Below, piece by piece: positions 10,367-45,424 of a stretch of 49,068 nt of DNA. The stretch's first letter is position 1, and each line of letters begins with the position of its first letter. This stretch comes from an uncultured Candidatus Peribacteria bacterium (GTDB taxonomy: Bacteria; Patescibacteriota; Gracilibacteria; BD1-5; UBA2023), in assembly GCA_964518815.1 (NCBI GenBank), contig CAZFLS010000001.1, positions 1 through 49,068 on the forward strand, read 5' to 3'. The translations under genes were made by a program, and so were the position numbers. Below the pieces are notes generated by a model. That model did not search any database and was not told where the DNA came from. It saw only the letters and a list, made by a program, of their open reading frames with translations.

Positions 10367-10378
10367 AATTATAAAAGG

Positions 10379-11710: not shown

Positions 11711-12040
11711 ATGGCAAAAAATAAAAAGATGTTTTTAAAATATTTTAATACAATTATTTATAATAAAATATCTTTAATATATACTTTATTAATGCGTTTA
11801 TTAGAAAATTACTTACTCAATATACCCGTTTTATACTGATTAATCTTAGTTATATTTATTATTGTATTGTTATTTGCATTAGTTTCTTGAATTAAACTGT
11901 TAGTGAAAAATAAAATAAACTTTAATAATTTAAATAAAAAATATTACCTTATTATATTATATTGTTGTTTTTTACTTTTTTTATTATATTTTAGATATGA
12001 TCTTCTAAGATTTATTTTATATTTCTATAACTTCTCTTAA
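11711..12040 (+). CDS. possible small membrane protein (109 aa)
   Basis: ATG..TAA with two in-frame TGA codons and two hydrophobic stretches. Overlaps the 3' end of the convergent nuclease gene by 24 nt. Could be spurious. Confidence 0.25.
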
Positions 12041-12775: not shown

Positions 12776-12787
12776 AAGGTTATTGTA

Positions 12788-15397
12788 TTATTTTATAAAT
12801 TTATCTTCAAAAGCTTTTTCAAATTCATTCTCTTTTTTTTCACTATAAAAAGGTAATCAAATAAGCTTATAATTTCAAAAGTTCATTTCTAATATTTTTG
12901 CTTTATCTTCTATTTCAAGTAAAAATTCTTGTTTCCAGCCTTCTATAGAATTTTCAAATCCTAAATTACTATCCTTAAATTGATCTCATTTCGGTTCTAT
13001 AAATATTTGATAAGTAAAAGGTTGTTTTGTAATTTTATCTTGCATAAACAATATAAAATCAGGCTCAAACCTATCTCAATTTATAAATGAATAAATAGCA
13101 ACAGTTCTTTCATTTCGGATTAAATAAATATTAGTATATTTTTTTTCTAATTTTTGTATTATATCTTCAAACATTTTTATAAAACTCTTTTCTTCACTAG
13201 TTCAATTGATTTTTTCAAAAACAAACCATTTTTTATTTACTCAAAATCATTCTACTCATAAATCCACTTTTATAGCTTTTTCAAAAGGATATTTAGAAAT
13301 ATTCTTTGATATAAAAGTTTTTGTTCATTCATACTCAACTTTTTTATCTTTAATTTCAATTTCTAAGATATTTAAAAGAGATGAAACAGCTTTTAACTTA
13401 TTTTCTATTGTTAAATTCTCTAAAACTTCCTTAGAGCTGTAAAAATCTATACTTATATTTCATAGATAATTATCCGATTTAATAAACTCATCAATACTTT
13501 GAAGTTTTCAAAGATAACTTTTAAGGTTGGAAAATTTATAGAAATCATTTCTTTGTATAGCTTTTCTTACAATTCTATTATCAATTTCTTTTATTAAAAT
13601 ACTTTTTGGTTCTTTTTCTATTTTAAAATTATCTTTCTTATCATCAAAAGCTTCTATATCATAGCTCTTTCAAGTAAATAAATCTTTAAATTCATATCTT
13701 TTAGTTTGGAGTCAGATTTTTTCAAAACTATCAATATTTGAATAATCTTTAAATTTTTTCTCATTTGTAAAAATAACTCAATTTTTATAAAATTCACTAT
13801 CTTTAAAGGATCTTTTAAATTCAAAAATAAAATCCTTTTTTTCTTTTTCATCCATAATTCAAATATCTCTTAAAGCCTGTCTTATTTCTGCAATATATAA
13901 ACTATCAAAACTTGTATGATAATAAAAAGTTTCAAGTATTTTTAAATCATCGAGCTTATTATCAAACTTTCTTTTGAATTTATTTTCTCATAAAGTTTTT
14001 TCTGTTACAAAAGGAAAATATCTTGCTCATCTTCATATGAGTTGAGCTTCGCTAATTGTTTGGGGTCAAACTTTGATTTTTCAAGTTTTTTTATCTACTA
14101 CATTACTTCTAGACTCATATAATCTTACAATATCAAAAAGATTTAAAACATCCCATCATTCATTTAGTTTTTGTACAGCAAAAACAGCTCTTATACGATT
14201 GTTTTTATCTTCAAGAGTATTAAGTAGTAATTGATTTTTTCAAGCCTCACTATCATCATTTGCACTTATACAATTTTCATGAACAAAATCATCTTTTAAC
14301 TCATTCACAAGTAAATCAAGACTTATTTTACTTTCTTCAAAAAATTCAAAAGCTTTTAATATAATTTCTGAATTAGTTTTGTTTTTTATATTTAAAATCT
14401 GATCTGGCTTTAATTCTTTTATAAGCTTATCAAAATTTATTAAATTATTTTCACTTTCTGCAACTGTTTTTTGAGCCTTAAATAAAATAACTGGTTTACA
14501 TAATATTTTATTTTTTTCTGCTACTTTTAATCTATATTGACTTAAAACAAGAGCCTGTAATATTCTGTCATTTTGTTCCATATCAGCCTTTAAAATATCT
14601 ACTTCTTTACTATATCAATCAAGTCTAAATTGTTTTAAATCATATCTGTAAATAATTTTATCAAGATATTTTTCGGATATATTTTCATTTCATAAATCTA
14701 TCGTTGCTGTAAATTCCAAAAGCATATTTTCTATATGAGAATTAAGAATTTTCATTATTGTATATTCCCATGAAGTCTTTTCTTCTTGTTCAGTTTTATT
14801 TAAATTTCAATTTTTTGTAAGTGTATTTATATGATGGGCTTCATCTGAAATTATAACTATTTTTTTGTCTTTGAATTCTTCATAAGATACCCTTCATTCT
14901 CATATTACATTCATATCAGTATGAAGTCCGTGAATAGTGGTAAATTTAATATTAATATTATCATCTGTATTACCTGAAAAATTAGAAACTTCTTTTATTT
15001 GTATTTGTTTTCCATCAAACACAATCTTATCATTGAATAAATACTTTGAAGAATTACTATTTAAAAAATTATCTTTCGTTTTTTCTATAATATTTGTCGA
15101 ATTTACAAAAAACAAGAAGTTTCTATATCATTTTTCATATAAGCTCAAAATAAGTCCAGCCATTACATAAGTTTTACCGCTTCAAGTTGCCATGTTATAG
15201 AGCAAATGAATAGGTATTTTCTTGTTTTTATAGCTGTCTATATAATATGAGAATCTAACAAAAGCTTCTTTTTGATACTCTCTCATCTGAAATTTTTCAT
15301 TCAGATTTTTTGTAATATTCAAAGGAATGTTCTTATCGAGAACATCCATTTCGGAAAGGGTATCAAATTTTTGGTAGAGAAATTGTTGTGTCGTCAT
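12788..15397 (-). pseudogene. res: type III restriction enzyme Res subunit (SF2 helicase + PD-ExK endonuclease), reading frame interrupted
   Basis: MAT-G-SGKT Walker A, VIISDEAHH (DEAH), LNEGWDVLNLFDIVRL and QLIGRGARY (motif VI). C-terminal RFEPDFILF..IFIEPKG endonuclease motif. In-frame TAA TAA at 13955-13960. Confidence 0.75.
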
Positions 15398-15430
15398 AGT
15401 TAATTTCTATTTTTTAAAACATAAAATAAA

Positions 15431-15781
15431 TTATTTTTTTCTAGATATTATTTTTTCAATAGTTTTTTCAAAACTATTTTCTCTTTTAATCAAAAAATAC
15501 AATATTAACATAATAATACCAATTATTAAACTAGAAAATAATATTGAAAGATATAAAATTTCATAAATTTTATCCTTAAAATTTGTTCAAGTTAATAATG
15601 TAAGTAAAGCTGTAAAAAAAACTCAAAATAAAAAAATTGATATATCAATTAAAAGTGGAAAATTATTTCTTGGTCAAGCTTTAATAATATCTAATTCTTC
15701 CTCTTGTACTTCATAAAAAGTCAGCTGTCATACTTGATGAACTATTTTTGTTGCTTGATTTTCATTATTTCAATTATTCAT
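15431..15781 (-). CDS. small two-TM membrane protein (116 aa)
   Basis: ATG..TAA, 351 nt. Hydrophobic segments LLIDISIFLFGVFFTALLTLL and ILYLSILFSSLIIGIIMLILYFL. Confidence 0.5.
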
Positions 15782-15791
15782 AATTTTGAAA

Positions 15792-16064
15792 TTAAAGATT
15801 ATCCATAAGCCACTCATTTTTACAAATAACATTTTGCCAAGCAGCAACTCTTCAAGAAAGGATAACAAATATACGATCATTACTATCTATTTTTGTTTGT
15901 AAAGAATTTCTAATATTTTCTGCACTTTGATCTGTCTTAACAGCCCATACTGATTCTAGTATCTTTGCCCAAGTACCATAAGATTTTATTGCCTGATATA
16001 AATCTTCATAATGTCAATAACTTTGATCTTTTCTTAGATCGTAACTTATAATATAAGTGTTCAT
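15792..16064 (-). CDS. small alpha/beta protein with Cas2-like motif pattern (90 aa)
   Basis: MNTYIISYDL..YEDLYQAIKSYGTWAKILESVWAVKT..AENIRNSLQTKIDSNDRIFVIL. The YDL and SVW motifs are spaced as in the Cas2 ferredoxin fold. The fold assignment is inference only. Confidence 0.45.
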
Positions 16065-16087
16065 ATTTTGGTTAGTTAAAAAATAAA

Positions 16088-18010
16088 TTATTTATAAAAC
16101 TCTCCATTAATCTTTTTATCTTCTTTACTTACTCAATTATTTACATCTTCAATCTCGCTATAATTTACATAAAGCATATTCTTATCAAGAAGCTTGAACA
16201 AAAACTTTTTCTGATTTTCTATACTTAATTTTTCAAATTCATCTGTATTTTCATCAATATTTTTAATATTTACTTTGTAATTTATATATCATGTTTTCTT
16301 TATCTCTTCATATATTTTTATTATTTCTTTACTTGTTTTAGCTTCTTGAATTTTATCAATGAAATTTTGATTATTTTTCATAAGTTCCATATAAACAAAA
16401 TCTCATCATCAATTATTTTTAATTACCTGTTGTACTCTAGGAATAGTTACATTTCTAATATAATCCATTTGCTCAATTAATATAAATTGTCTATTTCATC
16501 AATCTTCTTTATTTAATTCCAAAACTGCATGAGCTGTTGTCCCACTACCTCAAAAAAAGTCTAATATTTTTGCTTCCTTATTTTTTGAAACTATTGCATA
16601 TATACAATCATATACATTCCATAAAGATTTTGGGAAACTAAATTTACATCAAGGAACCAAACTTTTTATAAGTTTTGTTCCATATTCATTTGCATCGTAT
16701 TTTTTATCTATCCAAACTGTTTTATATTGTCAAAAATCTTTTCAAATATCAATATCATAAACATCGTTATTAACTTTCACGTGTAATAAATCTTGTACTT
16801 CTTCTATACTTTGACGAGCATATCTCCATTTTCTTTCCACTCATTCCTTATCAATTGGATAAATTTCAACAAAATCTCAATCATGTACATTAACCTGAGG
16901 ATGAGTTCAATCGGAACAAACATTTCAAAATCAGATAACCTGTAAAGTTTTTTTGTCTGCTATAATTGAATAAAAACAATTTTTAGCATCTGTTCTTTTT
17001 GACTCTCAGCCATTATCTCTTAATCATCTATTTTTTATGTCTTCTTCAGCTATTTTTCTATTTAATACTGTTTTTTTATCTTTAGGAATAATAAAAAATG
17101 CAAATTCATGGGTATAAGAAAAGTTTGTACCTTGTACTCATCTTGGATTATGAACTATTGTAATGCAATGACTCTCATATTCTGGGAATATTTCATCAAG
17201 TAATACTCATAAATATACTTGTTCAGCTTTATCAATTGCAACAATCAATACTCATTCTTTTTTAAGTAAATTCTTTGCAATATCTAACCTATTTTTCATA
17301 AAAGTAAGCCAGGAAGAATGTTTAAATCTATTATTATATTCAAAAGTATCTCAATTTCCTCAAGTATTATAAGGGGGGTCAATATAAATAAGGTCTAATT
17401 TTCATGCAAAACTGCTCTTCAAACTATGAAGAGCTAAAAGATTATTTCATTTGATAATAAGATTATCTTTTATAGTTCAATTTTCATCTCTTTTAAATCA
17501 ATCAAGCTTGTGTTCTCAAGTCTTATCTATTCTTTTGAAATTCGTAAAAACCTTTTCATCAAGAAGTCTATCTATATCATCATTTCATAAAATTTCATTA
17601 TAAAAAACTTCATCTCTTTTAACATCTTCTTTATCTTGTCCTCAAGCCAAAATACAGTCTTTATATGGAAAACTTAAAACAACATCATTGTTGTCATTTA
17701 GGAGGTCTCATTTTGAATTTGTGAGTCCGATTTTATTTTTGAAACTTGTATAGCTATCGGGTAAAAATTCTTTATTGTTTATAAACTGAATGAATTTTTT
17801 ACTATCAAAAACTTCAAAATTACTTCAATAATTTAATGATTTAAAAAATGCTTTTTTTGTGTCTTTATTATTAAAAAGTAACCATATAAGATCCCCGTCT
17901 AATTTATCTGCTTCTTCTCTTATTACATTCTTCAATAAATCTCATTCTTGAGATATAAATCTTTTGTCTTGTTTTAATACTTCATATAAAATTTGAAATA
18001 AATTTTTCAT
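16088..18010 (-). CDS. mod: type III R-M Mod subunit, N6-adenine DNA methyltransferase (beta class)
   Basis: DLIYIDPPYNTGGNGDTFEYNNRFKHSSWLTFM (DPPY motif IV) lies upstream of ILDFFGGSGTTAHAV (motif I). 1923 nt in one frame. Confidence 0.85.
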
Positions 18011-20431: not shown

Positions 20432-20736
20432 TAAAAGAATTAAAAAGAAAAGAACAAGATATTTTACAACGATTAATGGATCATTCTAAAGCAGATGAAC
20501 AATTTTTAATAACAAGTTCTTATATATTGGAACTAGCAAATCGTGCTTATGAACTATTTGAAAGTTCGCAAGCTGAGCAAAAACGAAGATTACTAAATTT
20601 TGTATTTGCGAACTTTTCTGCACAAGGCAGTAAACTACAATACAAAATAAAAGAGCCGTTCAACGAACTGCTCTTTGCTTCAAAATCTTCAAATTGGCTC
20701 CCGCAGCTGGATTCGAACCAGCGACCAAATGGTTAA
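20395..20736 (+). pseudogene. C-terminal remnant (about 100 aa) of a large serine recombinase, reading into tRNA-Asn
   Basis: ITSNEYDKIIKELKRKEQ..LLNFVFANFS..SNWLP aligns by eye with the last 100 aa of the intact recombinase (..LLKLIFEKIF..RKTWLP). The final codons LPQLDSNQRPNG are the antisense of the tRNA gene. Confidence 0.7.
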
Positions 20737-20769
20737 CAGCCACCTACTCTACCGCTGAGCTATGCGGGA
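20695..20769 (-). tRNA. tRNA-Asn (anticodon GTT), CCA encoded
   Basis: TCCCGCA-TA-GCTC-AGCGGTA-GAGT-A-GGTGG-CTGTTAA-CCATT-TGGTC-GCTGG-TTCGAAT-CCAGC-TGCGGGA-G-CCA. 7-bp acceptor stem, TTCGAAT T-loop, 75 nt. Confidence 0.9.
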
Positions 20770-27166: not shown

Positions 27167-28093
27167 CTAATGTATAGGGATTCTGATATATTTTCTTTTT
27201 CATGTCATAGTCACCCCTGTTTCTGGATTTGATTTTTTTTCATCATAATTAGTAGAATTATTAATAAGTAAAATTTCATTGATTTTTTCTTTGAAACCTT
27301 TTGTAACTTCTTCTTTTGTCTTACAATTAAAAAAATTTCAGTAAGATAATCTATTATAATCACTCAAAACTTTCAAATAACAATCATAGGCTTTAATTTC
27401 TTTTTTTCAAGAAATTATTTCTTTCATATATTCATTAACCACAAGAAAAATAAGATTTGGCTCTGGAATAAGTACAATTCTAGGAAATTTTAATTCATAT
27501 GGATTTTTTAATCATAAAAAATCAGAAAAATCTTTACAACAAGTTTTATGTTTTGATCAATATTTTTTATCTAAAGTTTCTTCATTTTCTGCTGTAGAAA
27601 AGTCTATTGCTATGTATTGTTTATTTTGTTCAGTTTTATCTAAACACATAACATAATCTGCTCATGAATTTACATTGTCATGATAACTTGTGTCAAATAT
27701 ATGACAATTCTTAAATTCATTTAATGAACTAAAATAAGCACGTAACAATTCTCATACCACAATTTCTATAATCTGATTAAATAGAGCATTTACAGTATTA
27801 ATTTCATTAAAATATCAACTTAAATTTTCTTGTGATTTATAATTTTTTTCTTTGTTATTTTTATGATCTAAATAGAATTGTTTGATTCTTTCGGCTTTTA
27901 ATTTTTCACTATTATTTTTATTAATACGATCCAGAAATTCCTTTCTTCATGCAATAGAGTTAACCCAAAAAGTAATTTCAGTGTTTGGAATAATTTTTTC
28001 TGGAACTTTATCTATAAGATTTGCACTATCAAAAGGATTAAATTTATAAGAGTCTTTATCTGATCATAAATGTCAGATTTCTTGATTATGCAT
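27167..28093 (-). CDS. hypothetical protein (308 aa), immediately downstream of the toxin-like gene
   Basis: ATG at 28093 to TAG at 27167-27169, 927 nt in frame. No TM segments or motifs recognised. Confidence 0.45.
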
Positions 28094-28124
28094 ATTTGTT
28101 TTTGTTTTAAATATTATAATTAAA

Positions 28125-31058
28125 CTATTTTTTTAAAGCTAATTCAATATTTTCCTTAGCTTTTGAAGCAATGTTTGTAGCTTCTTTTTTATATTCTGGT
28201 GTTAATAAATCTTGTGTTACTTGATAAGTTGCAATTCATAATGATGAAAAAGTTAAGACTTTTCCTGCTCCTGAACCAATCTTTGCTGCAGTAAGTATTT
28301 TTTCTCACTTAGCACTTTGTCCTAATATAAATAATCCTTCTTTTATTTTTCATAACATTGTTCAATCTTTAGCTATATCAGCTACTTTAGTTGCGGTTTT
28401 TGTTCATTTAATTGAGTTCATTCAAACTCTTGCCCATTGAGATTGTCATAAGGTTACTAGTGATGCTGCATCAGCTAATGTACCAACTACTCAAAATCAA
28501 AACCTAATTCACCTGTCTACTCGTTTTAAATTTCTTCAAGCTAAATCTTGACCTGTAAATGCAGCTTTAAAATCAAGAATTTCACTTGTAATAGGTAATA
28601 ATCAAAATCAAAGCTCAGCGGCATCGTGTTTAAAATTATCTGTTCACCATGATTGTGCAACTGTATATGCTCAAAATCATAAAAATCCTACTTTTAGTCA
28701 AAGTTTACTTGTAGAATAAACTTTTCAAGCTACTGGAACTTTAGATAATCAAGTATCAATAATAACTCAAAGATGACTTAAATTACCAAATATTGCCTGT
28801 GACAACTTGTATCTAGTAGTATTGTCAAAAGAATGTTTATTATATAAACTTTCAATATTTTTTAAATGTGATTCTACTTTTAAAGCTTGTCCTTGGTTTT
28901 TTTTCAAAATTTCTTCATCAATAATTTTCATATCATTCAATGCATTATTTCTTATTATTCATTCTGCTGAATAATCGTTTTTTACAAAAACACCTTTAAT
29001 AGAATCAATAAATCATTCTTTTCCGTTTTTTCTAGCCTTTCTTATTTCTCTTTCTGCATTTTCTGCAATAATCCTTTTATCTCTCGTAAGCTTTTCAACA
29101 AGCTTATTATATGATTCAGCTTCAGTTCTTAATTTTTCTGTAACTCAGTTTAATTCTGCAATTTGTTTAGGGTTTTTAATTACTTCATTAAAATTAGTTC
29201 TATTAGTAACACTTTCTAAAACTTTCGGATTTTCTGTCATAAATTTGTTAAATAATTTGTCTCTTAAGACAGATTCTTTTGATGATAATTCCGTTTTTGA
29301 AATAAGAGCTTCAAGTTGAGTATATTCTTTTATAAGATCTTTATTTTTACCTATTCATAATCATTCTCTTTCTATTCATTCTATTCTCTGTCTTACTGAC
29401 CAACTAGTAAAATGTTTTCATATTTCAAATCTTTTGCCTTTTATCCAATAAAACAATATAGGTGCATCAAGACTCCAATGTAAGGAACCATCTGGTTTTG
29501 TTTCTTTATCCTTTCATCATTCTGTAGTCGCAACTGCTGCTCAAGTAGCCACTGCTCATACTTCTACTCAAGATGTTTCTTTTTTTCAATCTCAAGATTT
29601 TTCAACTTTTCAGTTATTAATTAATGTTCATGTAGAATCTGGAATAATTTTAATCAAAACATCTTCTACTAGTTCATCTCTTCAAAATTTCATTCATTTA
29701 GTTTTTTCTGCTAAATACTCTTTTACTGCTTTCTCATGTTCTTTTTTTACTGGATCTTCTTTTTCAATTCCAATTTTTTCCTTTACATAGCCCTTAAAAG
29801 AATCCCATACTCATCAAATACTAAAAGATGTATTTATATATTCATTTGCTTTACATTGAGAAATTGTTTTTATTAATGCAGGATCAATTTCTTTAGTTAA
29901 TCATTTGCTTTTCTGAATTTCAGCTCAAACTTGTTTTGTATATTCATCAGTTAATTTTGAAGTTTTCATTGAATCAACTCAAAAAATTAATACTTTTATT
30001 GCATCCCATATTTGAAATTTAGCAAATAATTCAAGTGCTTTTGTTAACCTGTTTTCATCAATATTAATATTTAAAGTATCTTTAAAAAATGTCTTTACTC
30101 ATTCAGATTCAAGAGCTTTTCAAAGTCAAAATATTCACAAAACTCATCCTAAAATCCATTTCCAAGCCGATCAGCCTGGTATTTTATCAAATATTTTTGA
30201 TAAAAATCATTCCTCCTTTTTTTCTGATCATTTTGAGTTATCTTCTCACCCAAAAATTCATGAAAATATTTTATATAACCCATAAGCTCAAAGTACGGCT
30301 CATCATACAGCTAAATAAGGATGTTCTTCTGCAAATTTCATTATTGGATTTTTATCAGAAATTTCTGAAGATTTTCATTCTTTTATTTTTTCTTTTATTT
30401 CTTGAATACTAGGAACGCTTTTTTTCGCACTTGATACAACATTATTTAATTTTTCATTTAAATAAATATAAATTGGTTTATCTTTATGATTACAAATTTC
30501 TTTCAATTTTTGTAGAACAATCTTATCTGTTTTATTTAAATTAAGTGTTGAAGAATTTATATTAGACAATTCCTCAAGATTTGTTATTTTTTTTCAGTTT
30601 ACAAGCGCATTATTGATTATTGCAAAAAGAGAAAATTTAAAAAGATTAAAGGCTTTTTTTTGACTTTCTATAGATTCTGTTGGTTTTATACTTAATATCT
30701 CTTTAATTTGTCACAAATGCTCCATATCTGCTATTTCTTTAGAACTTTTTTCAGAATCTAAGCCCTCTTTTAATTGATCTCTTTTTAATTTTGCTGTTGA
30801 TTTTGTTGAAGCTTTTACAGCTTCTTTAGTAATATTTAATTTTTCTTTAATTTTTTCCTTTATTTGTCTCTCAATTTCTTGAGTTTCAATTCAAGATTCA
30901 ATAAATTTTTTCAAATTATCTAATTCTTCTATGGTAAACTCTATTGTTTGTTTAATTTCAGGAATAGACAAAGTTCCGGAAAATCAGATCTTTTCCTTTA
31001 GTTCTTCAAGTGAAGATATTTTTATTTTTTCTAATCAATTTTTATTTTCTGATACCAT
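28125..31058 (-). CDS. 977-aa membrane-associated protein with pre-toxin-TG-like motif and Gly-zipper C-terminus
   Basis: 2934 nt in frame. Helical N-terminus and several hydrophobic Gly-rich segments. LLPITSEILDFKAAFTGQDLAGRNLKRVDRG (about 28505-28602) fits the PT-TG pattern P..TG.D..G..L...R. The C-terminus has AAKIGSGAGKVLTFSSLGIATY. Confidence 0.5.
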
Positions 31059-31088
31059 AAATTTCTTTATAATTTAATAAGTTTATTA

Positions 31089-31769
31089 TTATTGTGTAGT
31101 AGTCCATGACCTTATTCTTTCTAATTTTCTTACAAGTCATAATTTTTCTGCTACATCTGTGGTAACATCTCTATCAATAAATAATGTCTTTGCTCATTTT
31201 GATCAATGTAATTCTAGACCTTGAAAATTACTGGTTAAATCAGCTCACTGTAAGACTTCAATATATCAATCATTATCTTTTGCTTTTATTAATGCATGTG
31301 CTACTGCTAACTTACTTCATTTATTATTTTTATCTATTCTAAGAAAGTGTTTTTTTCAAGAAATATTTACAAGATAAAAATCAAACTCTTTATTATAGGC
31401 CAAAAATCTTTCTGGTATGATATTTCTAATTTCAGACTCTGTAATAGTAAAATCCATAAATCAAGTACGACCTGTTACTCCAATTTCTTTTGCGTTTTGT
31501 TTAGCAAAATATTTAGAATCAAGTTCTTTAAATCTCTTAATAATATCTCCAAAATCTTTAATTAATTTTTCTCTTTTTTTATAATCATCTCAATCAAGTG
31601 GTGCTTCTTGCCAAACTATTAACTTGCTTCTTAAAGATTCTAATTTAGTTTTTATTGTGTTATATAATCTCTCATACTCAAGATATGACATATTAGTTTT
31701 ATCTAAAGTTTTTATATTTGAAGCTAGATTTTTTGATTCTTGAGTATATTCATTAAAAAATTTATCCAT
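31089..31769 (-). CDS. hypothetical helical protein (226 aa)
   Basis: ATG at 31769 to TAA at 31089-31091, 681 nt in frame. Confidence 0.45.
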
Positions 31770-31789
31770 GTAATGCTTTTGATTAAAAA

Positions 31790-31942
31790 TTAAATTTTAT
31801 TTTTTATTCATTTTTTTAATTGTTTTCTTGTTACTTGAGAAGAAAATTTGGTCATATTTTTCTCAAAATTCTTACAAATCTCTTGAAAATCCAAAAGTGC
31901 TTTACAATTATCTTCTATTTCTTCATTATAAGTTTTTGTCAT
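31790..31942 (-). CDS. small helical protein (50 aa)
   Basis: MTKTYNEEIEDNCKALLDFQEICKNFEKNMTKFSSQVTRKQLKKGIKNKI. Same frame as ORF-track 31808..32005, read through its TGA. Confidence 0.35.
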
Positions 31943-31955
31943 AAAATAAATTAAA

Positions 31956-33689
31956 TTAAATTGTAGGTATTGGCGTATTAGACTTTTTTCCAGAAAATTT
32001 TTCATTATCCAATTCTTGATCTACTTCTCATTCCATACTAGAGCTAGTTTTTTCATCAGATTCTTTTGAATAAACAATATTAATTACATCTTTTACTCTT
32101 TTATCCTTAGTTTGTTCTTTGAATTTTTCTTTTGAACCAAATTTTTCAACTCATTTTTTATATAAATCTTCCATATATTTTTTAAATTCTTTTTGTTCAT
32201 TTTTATCTTTTATACCAAAATCAGCAGCACTTTTTCAAGAAATATTTAATACTCAAATAGAATATATATTATCAAAATCATTTTCAATTAAATCATTACC
32301 TAAATATTTATAAGAATTATATACATGCCACTCTGTAAGTTTTTTCTGTCATTCTTCTGTCAAATAATCCCATGATTTTCATACTTTACTTTTTGCCCAA
32401 TTAAAAGCTTCTTCTAATTTTTGTCATGTAGTATCAATTCCTTTTCATACAGTTCATCATTCTATTGATTTTGCTAGTTTTTCTACCAATCAAATACTAT
32501 CTAACACTCAATATGACCCCACAACTGCTAAAATAGTCGCAAATGTCTTTGATCCTCAGTCAAATGGTTTTCAAAAAATCCACCAAACTCAAAGTACTAA
32601 AAGAGACAAAACACAAGCTGGACTCATTTTACCACTCATTTTTCATATAAAATCTAAAGGGTCTCTAACTACATCTGCTAAAGATTGTTTTGTAAGTAAA
32701 TCTTCTGGAATTTTTTCTCAAGTTGCCTTCTCTACATGTTGACCAAGACTTTTTGGGTCTTTTTGTGCATTATCTCTTGCTGATACTCATTCATCTTGAT
32801 GTTTAGCTAAAGAATTTTTATCGTTTATATAAGCTATTAAAAATGTTTTTTCTGTTTCTTTAAGATTAGAATTAAGAATTGATTCTATAATTTTTGGTTT
32901 ATCTTTTTCTTCTATAATATCTGGAAAGATTATTTTTTTCTTTTCTTCTTGTCATATAAAATTTTTATTATGATCATTTACTATTTTTTTAGCTAATTCA
33001 TCAATATTTTTTTCTTTGCCATTCACATCATACATAAAAGAATTTACAACTGTAAGATTATCAAATTCCTCTTTTGTAATATTTTCTTTTATTATTTTAT
33101 TATATTTTTCATTTATTTCTCATCATTTTTGATTTACTACGCTAAGTCAATCTTTTTGGCTCAAAATACATAAATTATTAGAGTAAATAAATTGACTCAT
33201 TATAAAATTTAACATTAAATTTCTAGACGCTTTATCTTTAATTTCATTATTTTTTAGTAATTCAAAAGCTTTTTGTAATCATTTTTCATTTTTTTCTTTT
33301 ATTGAATTAATTTGATTTTTTAAATTTCCTAATTCATCTCAAGTATTTGTTTTTATTTCTTCTTTTTTTATTTTGAATTGTTCAATAAATTTTTGTACAA
33401 TTTCCTTGTCTTTTTCTTCTGATTTTTCTGTAGTCAAACTCTCTTTAAGATTTATAATATCTTTTTTTGAACACTCTATAGTTTGTTTCCAGTCTATTTT
33501 GATTTTATCAATATCTTCATCTTTCATTCATACCTCTTGTAATTTTTGTTTTAACACATCAAAAGTACTAATTTTAAATTTTTCATTAGTATCTTCAGAT
33601 ACTGAAGGATTTTTCTTGTCTAATTGAGCAGCTTCTTTTCAAGTATTTTGTGATCCTTCATTAGTAGGATTTTTAGCTTTATCTACCAT
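31956..33689 (-). CDS. 577-aa membrane protein, hypothetical
   Basis: 1734 nt in frame, including ORF-track fragment 33339..33527. Coiled-coil N-terminal half, hydrophobic segments PACVLSLLVLGVWWIFG and FATILAVVGSYGVL. Confidence 0.5.
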
Positions 33690-34701: not shown

Positions 34702-35271
34702 TTATGATATATTTGCTCGTGAACCATCTGGATTAAATAATAAAAAGTTTTGACAATCATATTTAGATAAATTTGCTCATGAAAAAATTACTTTATCATT
34801 TTCTATTTCCATTTTTTTATCAAACTCACATGGTTGTAATATTGGTGTACCTCAACTTGTTTTACTTTGTATAAAATGAACTGTAAATGTATTTGTGGCG
34901 GTATTTATTTCTTTTATTTTAATTAATAAATGATTTCATGTGCTATTTGTTCATAAAACTAAAGTAGATCAAGTATTTATACGACCATTAATTTTTGTTT
35001 TTAGATCTGAAGATATAGGGGTCCATAAAGAAGCATATGTCAATAATCTTCCATTTAAATTAGTTAGCTCGCTTTGAATTTGATTATTTACTACAGTTTC
35101 AAAAGCTGTTTTAAAAGCTGCTGCATTCGTAAATTTTCAAATAGATCTTATTCTTCTTATTAATTCTTTATGTACAGCGTCTTTATCTCTTAATCAATTA
35201 TAATCTGTAAGATTTAATCATAAAGTTGCTGCTTGATCAATAATTACTTGTCATATAGTTGAGTCGTCTGC
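34702..35271 (-). CDS. 189-codon open frame with no ATG start, continuing the upstream gene after an in-frame TAA
   Basis: ADDSTIGQVIIDQAATLGLNLTDYNGLRDKDAVHKEL... is open to TAA at 34702-34704, in the same frame as 35272..37509. Checked codon by codon over 35161-35400. Confidence 0.45.
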
Positions 35272-37509
35272 TTAATCAATTGCTTGCAAAGCTTCCGTTA
35301 ATCTTTGATTATTATCATCAACAGTAGTATTTTGATTTGAAGTTGCACTATTTTCAGTTGGTGGAGTTTGATTTCGATATTCTATCTTTTTTCAATATAA
35401 ATCAGGAGTTCAATCATAAATATTATCAACTCTTCAATCTTCATCAAATAAATATATGCTATGAGATCTTGGATCAATTACTTTTCATAAATCAGCCACT
35501 TTCATCCATCTTTTTAATTTCTCCTCATTTCAAGCTGATCTATAAAATTGACATAAAAATTCTCTTTTTTGAGCTGTATTAAGCATATTATAATTAAAAT
35601 TTCCCAACCAAGATGTTCATCTTCAAGCTAAAGATAAAACTCAATCAAGAGCATAAGTAGCGCCTTCAAACATATGATTTATTTCATTAGCTTTTGCTGT
35701 TTTTCTTATAAAATTGATACATGAATCATATCATTTATTTACTACTCCTTCCGTTTTCTCTATTAAAGAATGTGTTCCTGTAGCTCATTTTTCAAGTAAT
35801 TTAGTAAAAGGATATAATACTCATGATATTTTTGCTAATCTAATAAAATTTTTCTTAAAAAATCATCATTCAGCTTTTTTTTCAATAAATTTATTAAATG
35901 CTGATGTTGGTGTAGAAATAATTTTTGATGTTATTTTTCAGGTTCAAGCAATACCTTTTAAAGCTAATTTTATTCATTCTTCTGATAATCTTAATATAGT
36001 GTTTACTGTCGGCATTAAATTTGTTTTAATAATTTCTCTATATTGTTCTGTTCTTCAAATTATTTTTGTAATTTCTTGTAAACCTGTTTCATTTTGTTCA
36101 AAAGGATTTCTATCATTATAAAACATTTCATTTATTGTCCAGTTTTGATTTAATAATAAATCTCTTACTCTATCAAGTTCTCATCTTCAAAAATTCCAAT
36201 CTCTATGTCATTGTAAATTATTATATCTTCTTCTCAAAATTCAGCTTAAGGCATCTCTCATTTGATTTGTTTGTGCTGGAGTGTGATATCATGTAATAGT
36301 ATCTACTGCATTTCTAACTCATTGACGTATAAATCAAACGGAATTTCTATCTAAATAAAATAAAGACTGAAATTTTTCAAAATAACTATCAAGTAATCTA
36401 TTATGAGAATCATCTTCTCATTGTCAACTTAATTCTATTACTCTCTGTCTTGCTATTCATCTCCATTTGTTTACATCTTGATCAAAAAGTTTTTCTCTAT
36501 GTCAAAATGTATCAACTTTACTTTTATTAAATCTTAATCTTGCTTCTTTTAATATTTCTCAAGAAAAATGAGTCAAAAAAAGTTTATCAAATTCCGCTTT
36601 TGATAGCCTATTTTGTCTTAATTCTTCTGCACTAACAGGAAAATCGTTTAATCTCTTTTCTAAATAGTTTTGTTCATTTTTATTATATTTGTTTCAGTTC
36701 TCAATTTGATCTTTATTTCAATCTGTATCAAAAAAATTATTTATAATTTCACCAGATTCTTTTTTTACTATATCTTGGATTTTTTTCATTTGAGTTGGAG
36801 AAAGTACTGAATCTGTATATCAATGACTTGCAACTTCATGTACTTGATTTAAAGCAATCATTAAGTTCTTATAATTTTTATCAAGATTCTCCAATGGTTT
36901 TATATTTTCTAAAAGTTTTTTATAATCATCTTTTATTATTTCTGATACATCTACTCATCTTTTTTGAAGTATAGCTATTACTTCTTTTACTTTCATAATT
37001 GATTGAGCATCTGTTTCTTCATGAAAATCAAGATTATCTGCTAAATCTTCTAAGTGATTTTCTGTGCAAAAATTTCTTATTTTATTAACTATTTTTCCAA
37101 GTTTGTTTAAATCATCCGGGTTTAATCTACATTCAAATCTATTTAAAGCTGCATGTCTAATAATATAGCTTTCAGAAAAATCCGAAGATTTTAATAATTT
37201 TGTTTCTATGTCTTCAACAAGTTCGTTAGTTCTTTGTAAAATTAGACCTCTAGGGCTTAAATCATTTGTTGTAAGCGATATAATATAGTTTATTTTATCT
37301 TTAAGAGATTTACGTTTTTTCAATTCTGCTATTCTAGTCTGATTTCATCTACACTCTTCTTCTAATAAATTATTAACAAGACCTCTCATTCTAATACTTC
37401 AATCTCATCATTCAAGAAGTGATATTAATCTATCAGATCAATCAGATATAGCTGAATTATTAGTAGAAAGCGCATTTTGAGCTGTTATTTCAGGGATATT
37501 TAATGTCAT
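35272..37509 (-). CDS. 745-aa hypothetical protein
   Basis: ATG at 37509 is in frame with ORF-track 36955..37323. Ends ..NQTPPTENSATSNQNTTVDDNNQRLTEALQAID then TAA at 35272-35274. Confidence 0.5.
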
Positions 37510-37716: not shown

Positions 37717-37973
37717 TTATTTATAAATATCGTGATCTCAAATGTTTATAAATAAAACATCGTTACTTTCAGATAATTCAAACATAATTCTGTAATTATA
37801 ATCAATAGAAAACGACCAATATTTATTCAATTTTCAGCTTAATTTATGTGTTCTTAATTTTGGATCAAAAAGATTTTTTCTAAATAGTTTTTCTTTTCCT
37901 ACAGCCAATAATTGAATAATTATTGGTAATCTTTGAAAAGACTTTTCAAATTTAGATGTATAAAATATATTCA
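37717..37973 (-). pseudogene. RelE/ParE-family toxin gene with a frameshift
   Basis: The ATG frame gives MNIFYTSKFEKSFQRLP and then stops at TAG after 24 codons. The rest, IIQLLAVGKEKLFRKNLFDPKLRTHKLSGKLNKYWSFSIDYNYRIMFELSESNDVLFINIGDHDIYK, is in another frame. Total length 257 nt (3n+2). Confidence 0.65.
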
Positions 37974-38140
37974 TTTTATCAAATAAGACTTTTTAAAGAT
38001 TTTAACTTTTTTAATTTTCAAGATTTTTTTTCTTTTTCTGCAATACTTATAGCATCATAAGTATCTAAAATTTCTTTATAGTATTTTAAAGTATCTAGAA
38101 TAGAATTATATTCTTTTTTATCTAAAGTAACTGTTGCCAT
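37880..38140 (-). CDS. putative antitoxin (56 aa to the TGA, 86 aa if TGA is read as Gly)
   Basis: MATVTLDKKEYNSILDTLKYYKEILDTYDAISIGRKRKK.. lies upstream of and overlaps the toxin ATG in an ATGA arrangement (TGA at 37970-37972). The next TAA/TAG in frame is TAG at 37880-37882. Confidence 0.45.
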
Positions 38141-38321: not shown

Positions 38322-38783
38322 CTAAAATGGAACTTCTTCTAAATCTCATTTTTTCTTCTTTTTCTTAGTTTCTACTACAACTTCTTCATCTAATTCTTCC
38401 TCTTCTTCTTTACTATCTTCAATAACTGTTTCAATAATTTTAGCTTGTTTTTGTTGTGGTAAACCAAGCATTATTAAGCCTTCTCCTATTATTTCTGTCT
38501 TATATTTCTTTACTCAGGTTTTATCTTCCCAATGACTAGTTTGTAATCTTCAATCAATATAGATCTTATTTCACTTTTTTAAATATTGTCATATAACTTC
38601 GGCAAGTTTTCACCAAAAAACAATATTATGAAATTCTATCTGTTCTTTTTTTCAAGAATTGTCTTTCCAAACTCTATTTGTAGCGAGTCCAAAACGAGCA
38701 ACAAATTTTCAAGATGAAGTTTGAGTAACTTCTGGATCAGCCGTAATATTTCCAATAAGATGGACTTTATTTAAAGAAATCAT
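38322..38783 (-). CDS. ssb: single-stranded DNA-binding protein
   Basis: MISLNKVHLIGNITADPEV..FGLATNRVWKD..IEFHNIVFWGKLAEV..KGNKIYIDGRLQTSHWEDK (OB fold), acidic tail ending DLEEVPF. 462 nt. Confidence 0.9.
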
Positions 38784-39043: not shown

Positions 39044-42000
39044 TTATTTAAAATCAGATTTATAATCTATATCAACTTTTGCATCGGGAGCATTAAATTT
39101 TTTTGGACTTTTATGATAATCTAACTGAGCTTTTTGAAAGTCATTTATCTTTTGTATAATTTCTTCTTTTTTTGGTATGTCGTTAAAAGTATATTTCTCA
39201 TCACTAAACACTCAGGTTCAATTAAATTCTAAAACATATTTGCCGTCTTTTTTATATAATTCAATACCACTATTATAAGTATTATTTTTTACTCCCCCTT
39301 GTCAATCCGGTGAAGAATAATTTAAACTCCATTTAGCCACTTCTACCTTTTTTCAATTTTCAAGACTCTTCTCTAATTTTGTTTTGAATTCTGCTGCTTC
39401 CTTTTCTGCTGGTGTTGGTCCTTTTGGTTCTTCTGCTACTGGCACTTCTGGTTTTTTTACTGGTGGTTCCTCTGGTTTTTTCTCAGTTATACCTAAATAC
39501 TTTTTAGCATTTGTATCAATTTTTGCTGCCATAGCAACAAAATTTCAACCTTCTATTTCTGCAAATTTAACATTATTTACCACTTTATATTTTCAAGTAA
39601 GATTAACTTTTTCACCTTTATTTAATTGCGGTCAAACTATTTCTCATTTTGCATTTCTTACATTCAAGTTATTAACAAGAACTTCTGCTTCACCTTTTGG
39701 TCAGTCTTCTTTTAATTCAACTTTACTAAAATCGTGCTCTTTATTGCTAGGTTTTTCTTTGCCTGTAATAGATCGTTTTTTCTTATCTGTACCCGGTTCT
39801 GGTTTTGGTATTACTGGTGGAACTTGAGGAGTTTCCTGAACAATACCATTTCTCAATCTTGTTGAATCTACAGGGAATGTATTATCTAAAGTATCTCTTG
39901 CAAGTAAGACTCAAGCTCAACCTACTCAATAAGCAATGTAAGGCAAAATACTTCGTCATCTTCTTAATGATGGAATTGGTTCTGGGCTTGGAGTTGGATT
40001 TTGATCTCTCCATTTTTGATCTGTAATTAGATATGTTTCTGGATTTGGAGTTGATTCTGAGTTTCTCACTACTCTATTATTAATTTTTTCATTTTGTGCT
40101 CTTCTATTTCTTTGTTTTTCTCAAATTCTTTCTAATGCTTCAATTTCTTTCTGAATTTTTTGTGTTGCTTGTAAATCTCTTATTCAATCAACAATATCAT
40201 CTGCTCTTCTTTCATATACTAGATCTCTTCATTCTGATATATTTTGTATTGTATCTGGATTTTTATTATTAATAAAATCCTGTTCATTAATTAGTTTACT
40301 CTTTTCCAAAGGTCGTCAATTAGCATCAACTTTTTGAATATATATTCTTCATGACACATCACTTTTCATTATATCATAATGCGTTTGTCAATCAGGAGTA
40401 TATTTTATTACTACATCTTCGGGAATTTCATTAAAAACAGTTTTTATATCTTGAGTTAATATTTTACCATCTTTTCAACGTACAGAATTAATAAAACCTT
40501 GTTTTTCTACAGGATAATAAATAGATCTATCAAAAATAACTTCTTTTACATTACCGTAATGTTTGGTACCAATATAAATCTCTGGTTCAATTATTTCACT
40601 ACTATTAGGCTTTTTAATTTCGAGAATTTGATTATAAAAAACTGTGTCAGTGTTTTTATTATTCTGAAATTCTTCTACTTTAAATTTACCAGATTCTTTT
40701 GTAATTAATAAATAATTTCAGCCAACAGTTTTAGTTCCTAATAAAGCAGTTTCACCTTCCATAAGATTATTTAGTTTTAAATTAATTTCGGTTAGAGCTG
40801 CTTCAATATTTTGAGTACCTTCAAGATTAATTTTTTCTGATATTTTAGTTCATCTTGATTCTCAAACTATTCAATTCTCCATTAATATTCTCATTTCTTT
40901 ATAATCAAATTTTTTTCTTAAAATACTAACCTTTTTGGTAATTTCTTTTTGGTTATAGTTATAAACTCATTTTCCTTCTCAAATTTTGTGTGCTTCTAAA
41001 ATTGCCTGTTTTTGTTCTTCTGACAATGTTTTTCATAATAATTCTTCTGCTTTACTTAATCTTGATTCATCAGTTAATCGAGCATTTTTTTCAACTTCAG
41101 CAGGTTTTATTCCAGATCTCTTATATGCTTTTTGTACATTTAAATCATATTGTATCTTTTGTAATTTTAATTGTTCTTTTCAAATTTTTTCTACTTGTTT
41201 TTCTACTTTTTTCTGTCTTCTAGTTTCAAGTACACTTTGTGATTTATCTTTTAATTTTCCTAATCAGTTTTTAATTTTATCTGTAATTTGAAATTTAAAC
41301 TTACTGTCAGTTCTCGTAGTTACTTCTCATATTCAAGCATTTTCATTTACTTCAACTTTTAAATCACCTGATTTTAATATACTAAATCAACCAGCAAATT
41401 TTTCTAAAGCTGGTGAAGCAAAATGTAATCATCATCACATAATAGCCATAAGCGCTAATTCTTGTCATATTTCAGTTATTTCTTTCTCATTAAAAGCATT
41501 TAAATCTCAAGGTAACATAAAGTTAATTCCTGTATAAAGCGCTGGTCAAGTTAATCATTGTTTAATTAATCAATCTACAGCTTTTCTTTGAATTAATTTT
41601 TCTCAAGTTTCAGGAAATATTTTATATACTCTATTAACTAATTTTTCTGCAGCTCAAAAGGATCCAAACATTATTGAATTCGTAATAACTTCTTTTCACC
41701 AATCTGGAGAATTCATAAACCATTCTTGATTCCTAATCCATTTATGTACGGCTGTAAAAGTAAGTCACTCAGTTCATGCTTTTACTACAAATCGGCCAGC
41801 CTGAATTAATTTTCATCTTCTAGTTGTAGACTCTATTGTCCTTACAGTATCTATAATCTGTTTGCCTCTAATACTTTTTCTAGTAATCTCTTCTGTTTTA
41901 ATTGTAATTCAAGCAATCCTTTGAAGTTTTGAAGATGCAGCAAATCATCTTAATAATAATCCTCCTCATAATCTAGCTACTCATCAAGCTATTCATCATG

Positions 42001-43081
42001 AAATTAGCATTGCAGGAACATCATAAACCATAAATCAAATGGCTTGTTGTTGTCATTTTAAAGATAATGTAGTCCATTCATCTTTAATATCTGTAGAATT
42101 TTTAAATGTTTCCCATATTTCTTTTTGACTATCTGGCACTGAAATTCAACCATTTTCTCAAATTACATATTTACCAACATACTTTATTGTTAATTGATCT
42201 TTTATAAATTTTTTATGTAACTCATTATACAAAGTCACTAATTGTTCTTCACTTGTTATATTTGGATTAGTTTTAATAATTTTATCTTTATTTTTATTCC
42301 ATTCATTAATTGCCATTTTTCTAATTTCTCAAGCTGTTTTTTGCATTTGTTTTTCTATGTTTTTATTAATTTCCTGTACATGAGTATCACTTAATTTATT
42401 TTTTCAAGCCAAAAAAGTATCTGCCATTTCTTCAATAAAAGTATCCGTAATTTGAACTTCTCAAACATTTTCTTTTATTACTTTTAGTCAAGCAGCTTTT
42501 ATATTATTTGACCAAGAAGCGTTTTTATTAAAAAATGAGTAGAATTTAGAAAGAATATCTTTATCTGAAATATTATTTTTAAGAATATTCCAAGCTTCAG
42601 GTCATGAAATGTTTTTATTTTTTAATTTATTTATACATATATCAAGTTCTATAATAGCTAATTTTTTAGATTCTTTATTGTACCATTTTATAGAGCTCCA
42701 TTTTGAAGAATCTCTAATTTCATCTCTAACTGCCTCTATTGACCTTACTAAATATCTTACTCACTCATTTCAATTATTTTGAACTTCTCTTTTAAGAATA
42801 GTTGTATCTTTTTTTGCTTCTTCAATAGTTATTTGTTTTAATGACTCAAATTTTTCATCAATTTTTTCTAAACTTATATCTATATTACTTAAAAAATATA
42901 TTATTTTTTGCACTAAAATATTAAATTGTTCTGGAGGAAGAGTCTTATTACTATCTAAATATTTTTCCGCTTTTTCCTTATATGACTTCGCTAAAGTTCA
43001 TCATACTTCCATTCAATTTCTTTCAGTTTTGGCATTTCTTATTTCATTAAACCAATTTTTGTTATGCAATTCTGTACCCAT
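39044..43081 (-). CDS. 1345-aa membrane protein with SH3b-like segment, hypothetical
   Basis: 4038 nt in frame. Central Gly-rich hydrophobic segments (AMLISGGIAGGVARLGGGLLL, LALMAIMGGGLHF), Pro-rich linkers, and EVLVNNLNVRNAKGEIVGPQLNKGEKVNLTGKY..FAEIEGGNFVAMAAKI (SH3b-like, about 39515-39715). Confidence 0.5.
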
Positions 43082-43214
43082 ACTTTTTAAATTAAAAAAT
43101 AATTTGTTATATACCTTTTAACTTTATCATAAATCGTTTTTTCTGTCAAAAATCTGAGGCTCTTTTGACTCTATAGTTAATGATAACATATATTTTAAGC
43201 TAATTTTAAGTTCT

Positions 43215-45350
43215 TTATCTAATTTCTCAAATTAGCTCTCATTTTTCATTTTTTATATTAGCTATTCAATCTTTTAATAATAAGATAATCATTTCAGACA
43301 TTTTTTCCTTTGAGATAGATTCAGTTTTAGATAAAAATCATTTTTTTCACTTTAATTCAAAATTTTCACCATTTACTCAAATTGATTCTATATAACTTCA
43401 AGCTGGATTAGAAATTTTAACAATATAATTATTGCTTCAAATAGTTAATTTTCATTCTAAATCAGTTTGATTAGAAATATAATTTATCTTTTTTCAATTT
43501 TCTAAGGCTATGGGAAATGTTGTTGCTTTTTCTATTGCTGTTTTTACTTTATCAAAATTTAATACTTCAGGATGGTTTTGTAAATCAGTTTTTGGTTGAT
43601 TAGTAGTCTTTTGTTCTTGTTCAAATTGTTGTTTTTCGGATTTTAAAGTATCAATATTAATTCCCGCTTTTTGTAATAAATTTTTTCTTTGATAGGAAAT
43701 AGTCTCAAATGTAACTGGATGAGTTAATGTATTAAGATAATCCCGAACTTTTTTTACACTAAATAGTTCAACATATGTTTGTAATATTCATAATATTTCA
43801 GATTGTTTAGATTCTTCTTTAATAGAATTTTTAACTTTTAAAATATATTGTCAGTTATCAAAATCAGTCAAAGTAATATTTTTTAATTTTCAAATAACAG
43901 GATTTATAACAAAACTAGAGTTTAGATCTATATACTTTTGATTACCTTTTACTCTATTCGCAAATTCTAATTTTTGTTGTTCTATTTTTGCTTGTTCTGT
44001 TTTCTGTGATTCTTCTTTGTTTTTTTTATCTACATCTGCTTGCTTCTGTTTTTCTAAATTTTCAATATTATTTAAGTCATTAAAAAAATTATCATTTGGT
44101 TTTTTATTAGAAAAATCAAAATGAATATCTTTTATTTCTGGAATTTGTATTTCTTTTACTACTTCAATTTCTTTTGCATCATCTTTTGGATCTTTTTCTT
44201 TAATTTTAAAGCTGGTTTTTTTATTTTCAAAAACATTTTTCCAAAAATTCTCATCATTTATATCGGCTCATTTGTCATTACAATACTTAAAAAATGGTTT
44301 TAGTTTTTCAGTATCAATTCAAGATAAATCTTTATCTTTTAAAATATCAATTTTTGAAGTACTATTTGGAATTAATGTTCAATTTTCTGAAATTTTAGCT
44401 CAAAAAGATTTTAGATTTTTTATAGATTTTCTTATATTAGCCTCAAAATTAATTCAAGTTATCATTTCATTTCAGGTTTTGTAGCCAAATATTTTTGCAA
44501 TAAAATCTCAAATAGGAGATCATAAAATCCAATCAAAAATTCCCTTTGCGAGTGGAAAAGTAAAAACAATATCTAAAATTTTTTCTTTAATTTCTCATCA
44601 AGCAGAAATTAAAGCAATTTTTTCATTTAAATTAGTAATATCTCATTTTAATCATTCTAAATATTTTGTTAATTCTTCTTGACTTAATGTTTGTATTTTT
44701 GAAATATCAATACCTTCTTTATATTCTGCTATGGCTTTTGGATTAGATAGAAATTTATCTAATCAAACAGGTTTTGGATTTTTATTTACCAAATCTATAA
44801 TTAATTTTAAATTATCATCAATTATACTATTAAGTATAGTATCACCTACTTCTCTTTTAAAATCTTCTCATTTTAAATTTAACATTTTTATTAATCAGCT
44901 TTCTTTATTTTTATCTTCTTCTGATCTTTTTTCCTCATCTCAAATTCATAAAAAAGATGTTATTTTACTAGTAATATCAATTTTATCTGAAAATCACGCA
45001 AATACTTTTTTCATATCTGGATTGTTAATAATCTTATCGACCGCAGCAACTTTGATATTGTTTTTTTGATCGGGAGTAACAGAAACATTTTTTAGTTTTT
45101 CATCTATATAACTATCTATATATTTTCTTACTTCTTGCAAAAATGGTATTTTTTCTCATTCAAAAATTGTATCCAGATTTGATTTTCAAGAATTTTTTTC
45201 TACTTCAGTTTTTAACTCTGCTGTCTGTTCTTGAGTTCAGTTTAAAACAGATCGTTTCTCTTCTACAGGCAAATTTGATTTTGGTTGTTCCACTGGTTTT
45301 GATTGTTCTGCTAATTTTGATCATGGATTAGCCGCTAATTTATCAGCCAT
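43215..45350 (-). CDS. 711-aa hypothetical protein
   Basis: ATG at 45350 to TAA at 43215-43217, 2136 nt in frame. Lys/Glu-rich, no motif recognised. Confidence 0.45.
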
Positions 45351-45424
45351 AAAATAAAACATTAAAAAAATATTATCAAAAATAAGATAACATATAATGC
45401 ATAAAAATGCAAAAAATGAGAACA

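Follow-up and report, generated by a model that had tools for sequence, protein, structure and literature searches.

A conserved, non-polymorphic and probably membrane-associated PT-TG protein in a Candidatus Peribacteria genome that reads UGA as glycine

The stretch of DNA described here (termed 'the window', and comprising all 49,068 nucleotides from position 1 of contig CAZFLS010000001.1, assembly GCA_964518815.1) comes from an uncultured Candidatus Peribacteria bacterium placed within the Gracilibacteria. An initial inspection of its letters and open reading frames (ORFs), made without database searches (the 'sequence-only reading'), had drawn attention to a protein of 977 amino acids (aa) bearing a motif reminiscent of the pre-toxin TG (PT-TG) domain, preceded by two small helical proteins and followed by a 308-aa orphan, and had proposed that these genes constitute a polymorphic-toxin-like cassette with a candidate immunity gene. 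The analysis reported below leads to a different description: the 977-aa protein (g977) is a vertically inherited, conserved membrane protein with an invariant rather than a swappable C-terminus, and the genes around it form no polymorphic toxin cassette. The assignment of the PT-TG domain, judged from profile matches across the family, is nevertheless correct at the family level.

The C-terminus and the PT-TG domain of g977

Relatives of g977 were gathered through an exhaustive HMMER search that used its NCBI copy (P0002) as the query, and that returned 48 proteins, approximately 25 of which (1,000-1,400 aa in length) share the entire g977 architecture. From the N-terminus, that architecture consists of a helical region, two Gly-rich hydrophobic helices with an invariant Gly, a conserved helical domain and a variable linker, then a long coiled coil that leads, through a weakly hydrophobic segment, to the PT-TG domain; beyond it come a hydrophobic helix in which an Asp is conserved, a stretch that is basic and amphipathic, and a final segment of weak hydrophobicity. 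The long helical N-terminal region and the Gly-rich hydrophobic segments described in the sequence-only reading are both borne out. In g977 itself, the helix pair is separated by a charged loop of 24 aa and the invariant Gly (Gly313, corresponding to G110 of P0002) resides in its second helix; the tail begins with a hydrophobic helix containing a near-invariant Asp, and continues through the basic stretch to the final weakly hydrophobic segment. A third group of relatives carries the PT-TG module alone, placed in the middle of the protein.

The possibility of a polymorphic C-terminus was assessed in six Gracilibacteria orthologs (overall identity, 30-46%) that had been translated with code 25. 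Across these six proteins the tail (aa 860-977) displays 33-42% identity, at or above the values for the whole protein (30-40%), and can be aligned over its entire length without any exchange of domains; the same alignment of the entire tail is observed in 19 full-length homologs. Because the tail is conserved and unswapped (the very outcome that the sequence-only reading had named as contrary to its proposal), the interpretation of g977 as a polymorphic toxin fails: PT-TG likeness is present among the homologs, but their C-termini are conserved and non-polymorphic. The last ~120 aa, previously likened to membrane-depolarising toxin tips, are instead a conserved part of the family, and the 'glycine zipper' attributed to them lacks statistical support, since g977 contains 10 GxxxG motifs as compared with 7.2 +/- 2.4 in shuffled sequences (p=0.17) and has a few runs of the small-xxx-small type (at aa 250, 797 and 924).

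The PT-TG motif had been located correctly near the C-terminus of g977, and the peptides quoted in support of it and of the tail are present (at approximately aa 820-859 and 924-945). The match of the Pfam profile PF14449 to g977 alone (15.3 bits, E=0.02) lies below the gathering cut-off of 23.5 bits, while the same profile matches 24 of the 48 homologs at E<=0.01 (best E 2.1e-9), and five of eight individually rescanned homologs exceed the cut-off at the site aligned to the g977 motif (P0007, 37.7 bits; P0026, 36.4; P0016, 32.8; P0008, 29.3; P0014, 28.1; group B). PT-TG membership of g977 therefore rests on transitive homology to relatives that score above the threshold at an aligned site. 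One of the family members (MEK7528864.1) has already been named a 'pre-toxin TG domain-containing protein' by NCBI. The suggestion that an LXG domain (PF04740) might accompany PT-TG did not hold: no domain of g977 other than PT-TG was found in Pfam or NCBIfam at E<=1 or 0.1, LXG and trafficking domains included, and none of the 48 family proteins displays a trafficking or secretion domain.

Within the family the PT-TG consensus reads LP..GT.SDFYSA.TG.E..TGRKLD..DR..R..FGVVG...D, in which the Pro is invariant and an Asp, two Arg and a Gly are near-invariant. The corresponding segment of g977 reads LP..SE.LDFKAAFTGQDLAGRNLKRVDRGIR, and contains the Gly/Asp/Arg core and the TG loop by which the domain is recognised (PMC13483458). 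It is the most constrained segment of the protein, with 66-77% identity to g977 among the six Gracilibacteria orthologs. When the C-terminal module was modelled with AlphaFold2 (AF2) on an alignment of 29 sequences, the predicted local distance difference test (pLDDT) score reached 80-94 over approximately aa 807-866 of g977, and the model in this region consists of a helix, a short helix, a tight loop that contains the TG...GR...DR residues, and a long helix.

The family is distributed among Gracilibacteria, Peregrinibacteria and other Patescibacteria, and its named members come from metagenome-assembled genomes (MAGs) of Candidatus Peregrinibacteria and the 'Patescibacteria group'; Gracilibacteria, Absconditabacteria and Peregrinibacteria are known to constitute a single clade (PMC8080830). 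Additional searches were less productive. A word-seeded search with g977 recovered only the protein itself and the near-identical NCBI fragment, and a profile search with an alignment of the C-terminal module (A3) gave no matches, which is probably a failure of seeding rather than evidence of absence. A scan of genome contigs with a narrow alignment identified one Peregrinibacteria locus only, and so taxonomic breadth and copy number are poorly sampled; a scan of metagenomes returned no loci with a single-protein query and two with an aligned query.

Genetic code, gene string and the rest of the window

Under translation table 11, the region contains no ORF longer than 107 aa; the ORFs described here appear only when genetic code 25 (UGA=Gly) is applied. 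Reading UGA as a sense codon raises the coverage of the window by long ORFs approximately five-fold, and code 25 reveals a string of genes on the minus strand (g745, g234, g577, g50/g71, g226, g977 and g308) that includes all of the ORFs listed in the sequence-only reading. Several observations agree on the identity of the reassigned codon. UGA occurs at invariant Gly positions of the DnaJ protein encoded in the window, which indicates Gly rather than Trp; a partial copy of g977 at NCBI (99.9% identical, from a Candidatus Gracilibacteria MAG) has been translated with Gly at UGA; and, in alignments to 15 homologs that use the standard code, the UGA positions of g977 coincide with Gly in 30% and with Trp in 1% of cases (backgrounds, 8.8% and 1.1%, respectively), while its GGN codons align to Gly just as its UGA codons do. 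In this window, UGA encodes Gly and not Trp. The corresponding entries in the public protein collection are code-4 translations, with Trp at all 62 UGA positions of g977 (entry P0001), and g308 and the metagenome-derived orthologs are stored in the same form. Such translation lowers the apparent identity between relatives and hampers word-seeded homology searches; in public sets that apply code 4 or 11 to code-25 genomes, families of this type are hidden or distorted.

The intergenic distances (in nucleotides) along the string are g577-13-g50-20-g226-30-g977-31-g308, and this tight spacing indicates that the five genes form a single operon. The close proximity of the 308-aa gene to g977 had been described correctly, apart from a gap of 32 nucleotides that is in fact 31. 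Scans for promoters and terminators were uninformative in the AT-rich DNA of the region. Coordinates of the genes, and of the other features of the window, are collected in the table.

Table. Position and strand of the features described in the text (positions are those of the window)
Feature	Position	Strand	Remarks
g977	28125..31058	minus	977 aa, code 25, 62 UGA=Gly codons, PT-TG protein
g977 N-terminal helical domain (aa 2-111)	30726..31055	minus	~110 aa; common to g577 family
g977 Gly-rich hydrophobic helix pair (aa 247-271, 296-318)	30105..30320	minus	Hydropathy scans; putative membrane hairpin
g977 PT-TG domain (aa 813-859)	28482..28622	minus	Pfam match, ortholog identity, AF2
g977 C-terminal tail (aa 860-977)	28128..28481	minus	Conserved, not polymorphic
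g308	27167..28093	minus	308-aa ORFan downstream of g977; probably co-transcribed
g226	31089..31769	minus	226 aa; upstream partner of g977
g50	31790..31942	minus	50 aa; 71 aa from ATG at 32005, then overlapping g577
g577	31956..33689	minus	Upstream partner family, coiled-coil N-terminus
Open frame after g745	34702-35271	minus	189 codons (code 25)
g745	35272..37509	minus	Further upstream member of conserved Gracilibacteria gene string
Serine recombinase	4393-6096
Radical-SAM/SPASM protein	7455-8762
PD-(D/E)XK/Cas4-like nuclease	12017-12775
Type III restriction-modification res	12788-15397
Type III restriction-modification mod	16088-18010
tRNA-Asn	20695-20769	minus
Putative toxin and preceding ORF	37717-38140	minus	85 aa and 54 aa
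Single-stranded DNA-binding protein	38322-38783
g1345, g715	39044-45362	minus	Large orphan proteins

A member of the g577 family precedes the large gene in every Gracilibacteria locus in which the upstream side is visible (the homologs being L002_578, L004_896, L011_735 and L012_520). The g577 protein possesses a coiled-coil N-terminus and a subsequent hydrophobic hairpin (aa 355-402), and it shares with g977 an N-terminal domain of ~100 aa that was detected both by blastp (36% identity, E 7e-4) and by profile-profile comparison with hhalign (probability 94.8%, E 5e-8). Three other proteins of the window (g1345, g715 and g745) were considered as carriers of the same domain and were rejected upon comparison. 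The g226 family is likewise found directly upstream of the large gene, in loci L003 (281-1156; 291 aa) and L002 (1767-2810; 347 aa), with phmmer E values of 1.4e-24 and 9e-9. These two homologs harbor a Gly/Ala-rich hydrophobic insert of ~60 aa (for example, GLTGAAYGAVSGAATGGATGGLLAS...) that g226 has lost. The g226-like module occurs in Gracilibacteria loci either as a separate gene or fused to the g577-family gene: in L004 and L011 it appears to be joined to the C-terminus of the g577-like protein, and in L012 the g577-like/g226-like gene is split into parts of 520 and 293 aa. At the position of g50, locus L003 contains a 44-aa ORF with only a faint resemblance to it. Neither g50 nor g226 matched any family in Pfam or NCBIfam; the proposal that they correspond to the partners of LXG proteins holds to the extent that g226 is a conserved partner, and no relation to the LXG partner families emerged.

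Farther upstream, g745 has an ortholog of 972 aa in L004/L005 (blastp E 1.7e-37). The open frame that follows g745 directly and in frame after its TAA stop codon contains no ATG until near its end, is far too long to be expected by chance at 24% GC, and has no match to the C-terminus of the 972-aa ortholog; it may reflect read-through, a pseudogene, a sequencing error or translation from a non-canonical start.

The downstream gene, g308, matched only itself among 5.8 billion proteins, and had no match in Pfam, NCBIfam, PHROG, PADLOC or the PDB. It appears to encode a soluble protein and matched no immunity family. A motif of ~33 aa is common to g308 and the core of the g226 family (pairwise E 4e-5); that motif is all that the two have in common, and full-length paralogy between g308 and g226 was therefore rejected. 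In locus L011 the orthologous slot (bounded by a homolog of the window's g238) is occupied by an unrelated gene of 292 aa, even though the tails of the L011 and window proteins are 42% identical, and in L004 and L012 it contains genes of 117 and 127 aa that are related to each other and unlike g308. No cognate, co-varying immunity gene was therefore found, given that g308 is an ORFan, that the genes in the slot are unrelated and that the tails are conserved; the casting of the 308-aa protein as an immunity candidate was not sustained. It is instead probably an unrelated or accessory gene specific to its lineage.

Among relatives that use the standard code, the PT-TG genes of Peregrinibacteria are single genes with no same-strand gene downstream. 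Two of these genomes have a convergent ELP3-like radical SAM gene and WecG downstream of the PT-TG gene; in one of the two (L010) the genes for tyrosyl-tRNA synthetase and RecG lie upstream; and in L008 a stand-alone PT-TG gene is bordered by a convergent gene downstream and by the gene for nucleoside diphosphate kinase upstream. This housekeeping synteny represents the behaviour of a core gene. The neighbours of these relatives were also compared with the genes of the window, and a resemblance between them was rejected. The kinase gene adjoins the PT-TG gene in both L008 (549-1025) and L009 (8243-8722), one a member of group B and the other of group C, which hints that two architectures occupy an orthologous chromosomal position.

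Elsewhere in the window, the scanned proteins (all save a few small ORFs) include no secretion ATPase, of the FtsK/SpoIIIE type or otherwise, in agreement with the original statement that no type VII secretion system (T7SS) ATPase or other secretion gene is present; LXG (PF04740), an EssC-type ATPase and WXG100/Lap-type partners, the hallmarks of LXG/T7SSb systems, were likewise not found. No phage or defence signal was found for the genes around g977: none of six proteins matched PHROG, a tblastn search against 50,697 phage records gave no match, and genes for capsid, terminase or portal proteins did not come to light. At some distance are found a serine recombinase, a GNAT acetyltransferase, a radical-SAM/SPASM protein, a PD-(D/E)XK/Cas4-like nuclease and a type III restriction-modification system, all near a tRNA-Asn gene; the block from 4393 to 18010, together with that tRNA gene, may be an integrated island or a defence block. 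Upstream of the g977 gene string, an 85-aa protein resembling YafQ/RelE/ParE toxins (at a sub-threshold 24 bits) follows a 54-aa ORF after a gap of 1 nucleotide, an arrangement that, as far as these matches indicate, looks like a type II toxin-antitoxin pair; a gene for single-stranded DNA-binding protein (SSB) adjoins it. Each of the large orphan proteins g1345 and g715 has an internal Gly-rich hydrophobic segment, g1345 with a SlpA surface-layer domain near threshold (22.4 bits versus 23) and g715 with a segment in common with a 388-aa protein of L004. The remaining scanned proteins include methyltransferases as well as DnaJ.

A probable resident membrane complex and its rivals

On balance, g977 is probably a vertically inherited, alpha-helical, membrane-associated coiled-coil protein of ~1,000 aa that acts in a complex with its upstream paralog, and not a secreted toxin. 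Because it has no signal peptide, and because its first two hydrophobic helices are predicted to form a hairpin, the bulk of the protein would probably face the cytoplasm. The helix-loop-helix of the PT-TG domain (with its P...D...TG...GR.L...DR loop) might then lie at or within the membrane, with hydrophobic helices on either side, and g977 and its paralog g577 may assemble into a hetero-oligomeric membrane complex, for which the most likely role would be that of a scaffold at the envelope or host interface rather than that of a secreted, strain-variable toxin.

Several points weigh against this interpretation. Outside this family, PT-TG has been recorded almost exclusively in toxins, and so the conserved tail may itself possess some activity of that type; the function of g977 is a predicted one. 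The topology is derived from simple hydropathy, and two of the hydrophobic segments (H3 and H5) contain two to three Lys each, which renders them marginal as transmembrane helices. The full-length AF2 model is all alpha-helical and poor (pLDDT 53), and three Foldseek searches produced generic helical matches only (best E 0.5-0.9) and no structural analogue; searches of PDB sequences likewise returned nothing, or coiled-coil noise alone. The N-terminal domain shared with g977 is convincing only for g577 and L002_578, and not for more divergent relatives of g577. Finally, a variable downstream slot is also what a gene of the immunity type might look like.

The main rival to a resident complex is a conserved, host-directed membrane effector: a non-polymorphic, contact-dependent device in which the protein would be fixed in the cell of a candidate phyla radiation (CPR) bacterium through its N-terminal hairpin, the coiled coil would serve as a stalk, and the PT-TG domain and C-terminal helices would create a pore or conduit in the membrane of a host or prey. 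Such an effector, directed at a different phylum rather than at kin, could dispense with both polymorphism and a conserved immunity gene. The association of PT-TG with delivered toxins and its proposed interaction with the target envelope (PMC13483458), the Gly-rich hydrophobic helices with conserved Asp and Arg that flank it in g977, the variable downstream slot, and the epibiotic, predatory lifestyle of relatives of the clade, in whose membrane proteomes large proteins abound (PMC8080830), all accord with such a role. We nonetheless regard it as unlikely, because a long N-terminus that lacks a signal, followed by hydrophobic helices that are even in number, would leave the coiled coil in the cytoplasm, the window proteins scanned offer neither secretion machinery nor a secretion signal, GxxxG motifs are not enriched, g977 does not resemble pore-forming toxins by sequence or by fold, and the Peregrinibacteria genes sit in housekeeping synteny. 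A more far-reaching version, which we consider doubtful, would treat the family as a device for membrane insertion, ancestral and non-polymorphic, in the Absconditabacteria-Gracilibacteria-Peregrinibacteria clade: the N-terminal hairpin would anchor it in the epibiont, and the PT-TG domain and C-terminal helices would enter the membrane of the host to act as a tether, a pore or a conduit for feeding. If true, PT-TG would originally have been a membrane-translocation module that was later co-opted by polymorphic toxins, and the CPR proteins would be the first experimentally accessible setting, free of toxins, in which its function could be studied.

The classical cassette of the sequence-only reading (an LXG-like g977 with a Gly-zipper tip, Lap-like g50 and g226, an immunity protein in g308, and some other route of export) can point to the PT-TG domain, to the small genes upstream and the tightly spaced gene downstream, and to the divergence of that downstream gene between lineages. 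It is largely refuted by the conserved C-termini of the six orthologs and nineteen full-length homologs, and must now be judged very improbable: the family lacks LXG and every other trafficking domain sought in Pfam and NCBIfam, the window and L011 proteins retain similar tails next to unrelated downstream genes, g308 looks soluble and matches no immunity family, some relatives have no same-strand gene downstream at all, and no orphan toxin or immunity modules were seen. An origin from a prophage or other mobile element, for example as a tape-measure-like protein encoded after chaperone genes, would accord with the length and helical nature of g977, with its Gly-rich hydrophobic segments and with its position after two small ORFs in different frames, in a window that also contains a serine recombinase, a restriction-modification system, a toxin-antitoxin pair and SSB. 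With the phage searches negative, no structural phage genes seen and the orthologs embedded in conserved chromosomal synteny, that explanation is effectively refuted, and is very unlikely.

Comparison with known systems

Glycine-zipper effectors that depolarise membranes (of the TelE, TspA and Tse4/Ssp6 types) contain short, Gly-rich hydrophobic helices near their C-termini, as does g977. The similarity extends no further: no likeness to these effectors was detected in sequence or fold, GxxxG is not enriched, and g977 has no membrane protein as an immunity partner. With the LXG/T7SSb toxins of Bacillota (of the TelA-C, EsaD, TspA and TelE types), g977 shares the PT-TG domain, a helical N-terminal region, small genes upstream and a gene directly downstream. 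It differs from them in the absence of LXG, of partners of the WXG100/Lap type and of an EssC-type ATPase, in a C-terminus that is conserved rather than polymorphic and that has no cognate, conserved immunity gene, and in internal hydrophobic helices that indicate a resident membrane protein.

The closest counterpart is found among proteins that have already been described. The pre-toxin domain PT-TG, for which neither structure nor function is known, is widespread, and a large class of 'PT-TG singletons', of unknown function and possibly non-antagonistic, was reported in a recent survey (Becerra Soto et al., mSystems 2026, PMC13483458). The g977 family is a 'PT-TG singleton' of this kind in a new and clearly non-polymorphic CPR context, which the survey probably overlooked, having been restricted to genomes of >95% CheckM completeness. 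As in the singletons, PT-TG is the sole recognisable domain of a large protein that has no trafficking or toxin domain; in contrast to them, it is positioned near the C-terminus of a coiled-coil protein of ~1,000 aa, flanked by hydrophobic helices, in a family that is vertically inherited and syntenic in CPR lineages. The domain model also differs in quality, with a pLDDT of 80-94 when a family-specific alignment is used here, as against values below 70 in the survey (PMC13483458). A match to PT-TG alone should therefore not be annotated as a 'polymorphic toxin', since in this family no other element is as strongly constrained, and yet the protein does not have the properties of a toxin. The invariable placement of PT-TG between hydrophobic helices, together with a confident helix-loop-helix model, suggests that the role of the domain is related to membranes, and makes the family a well-suited system in which to test this.

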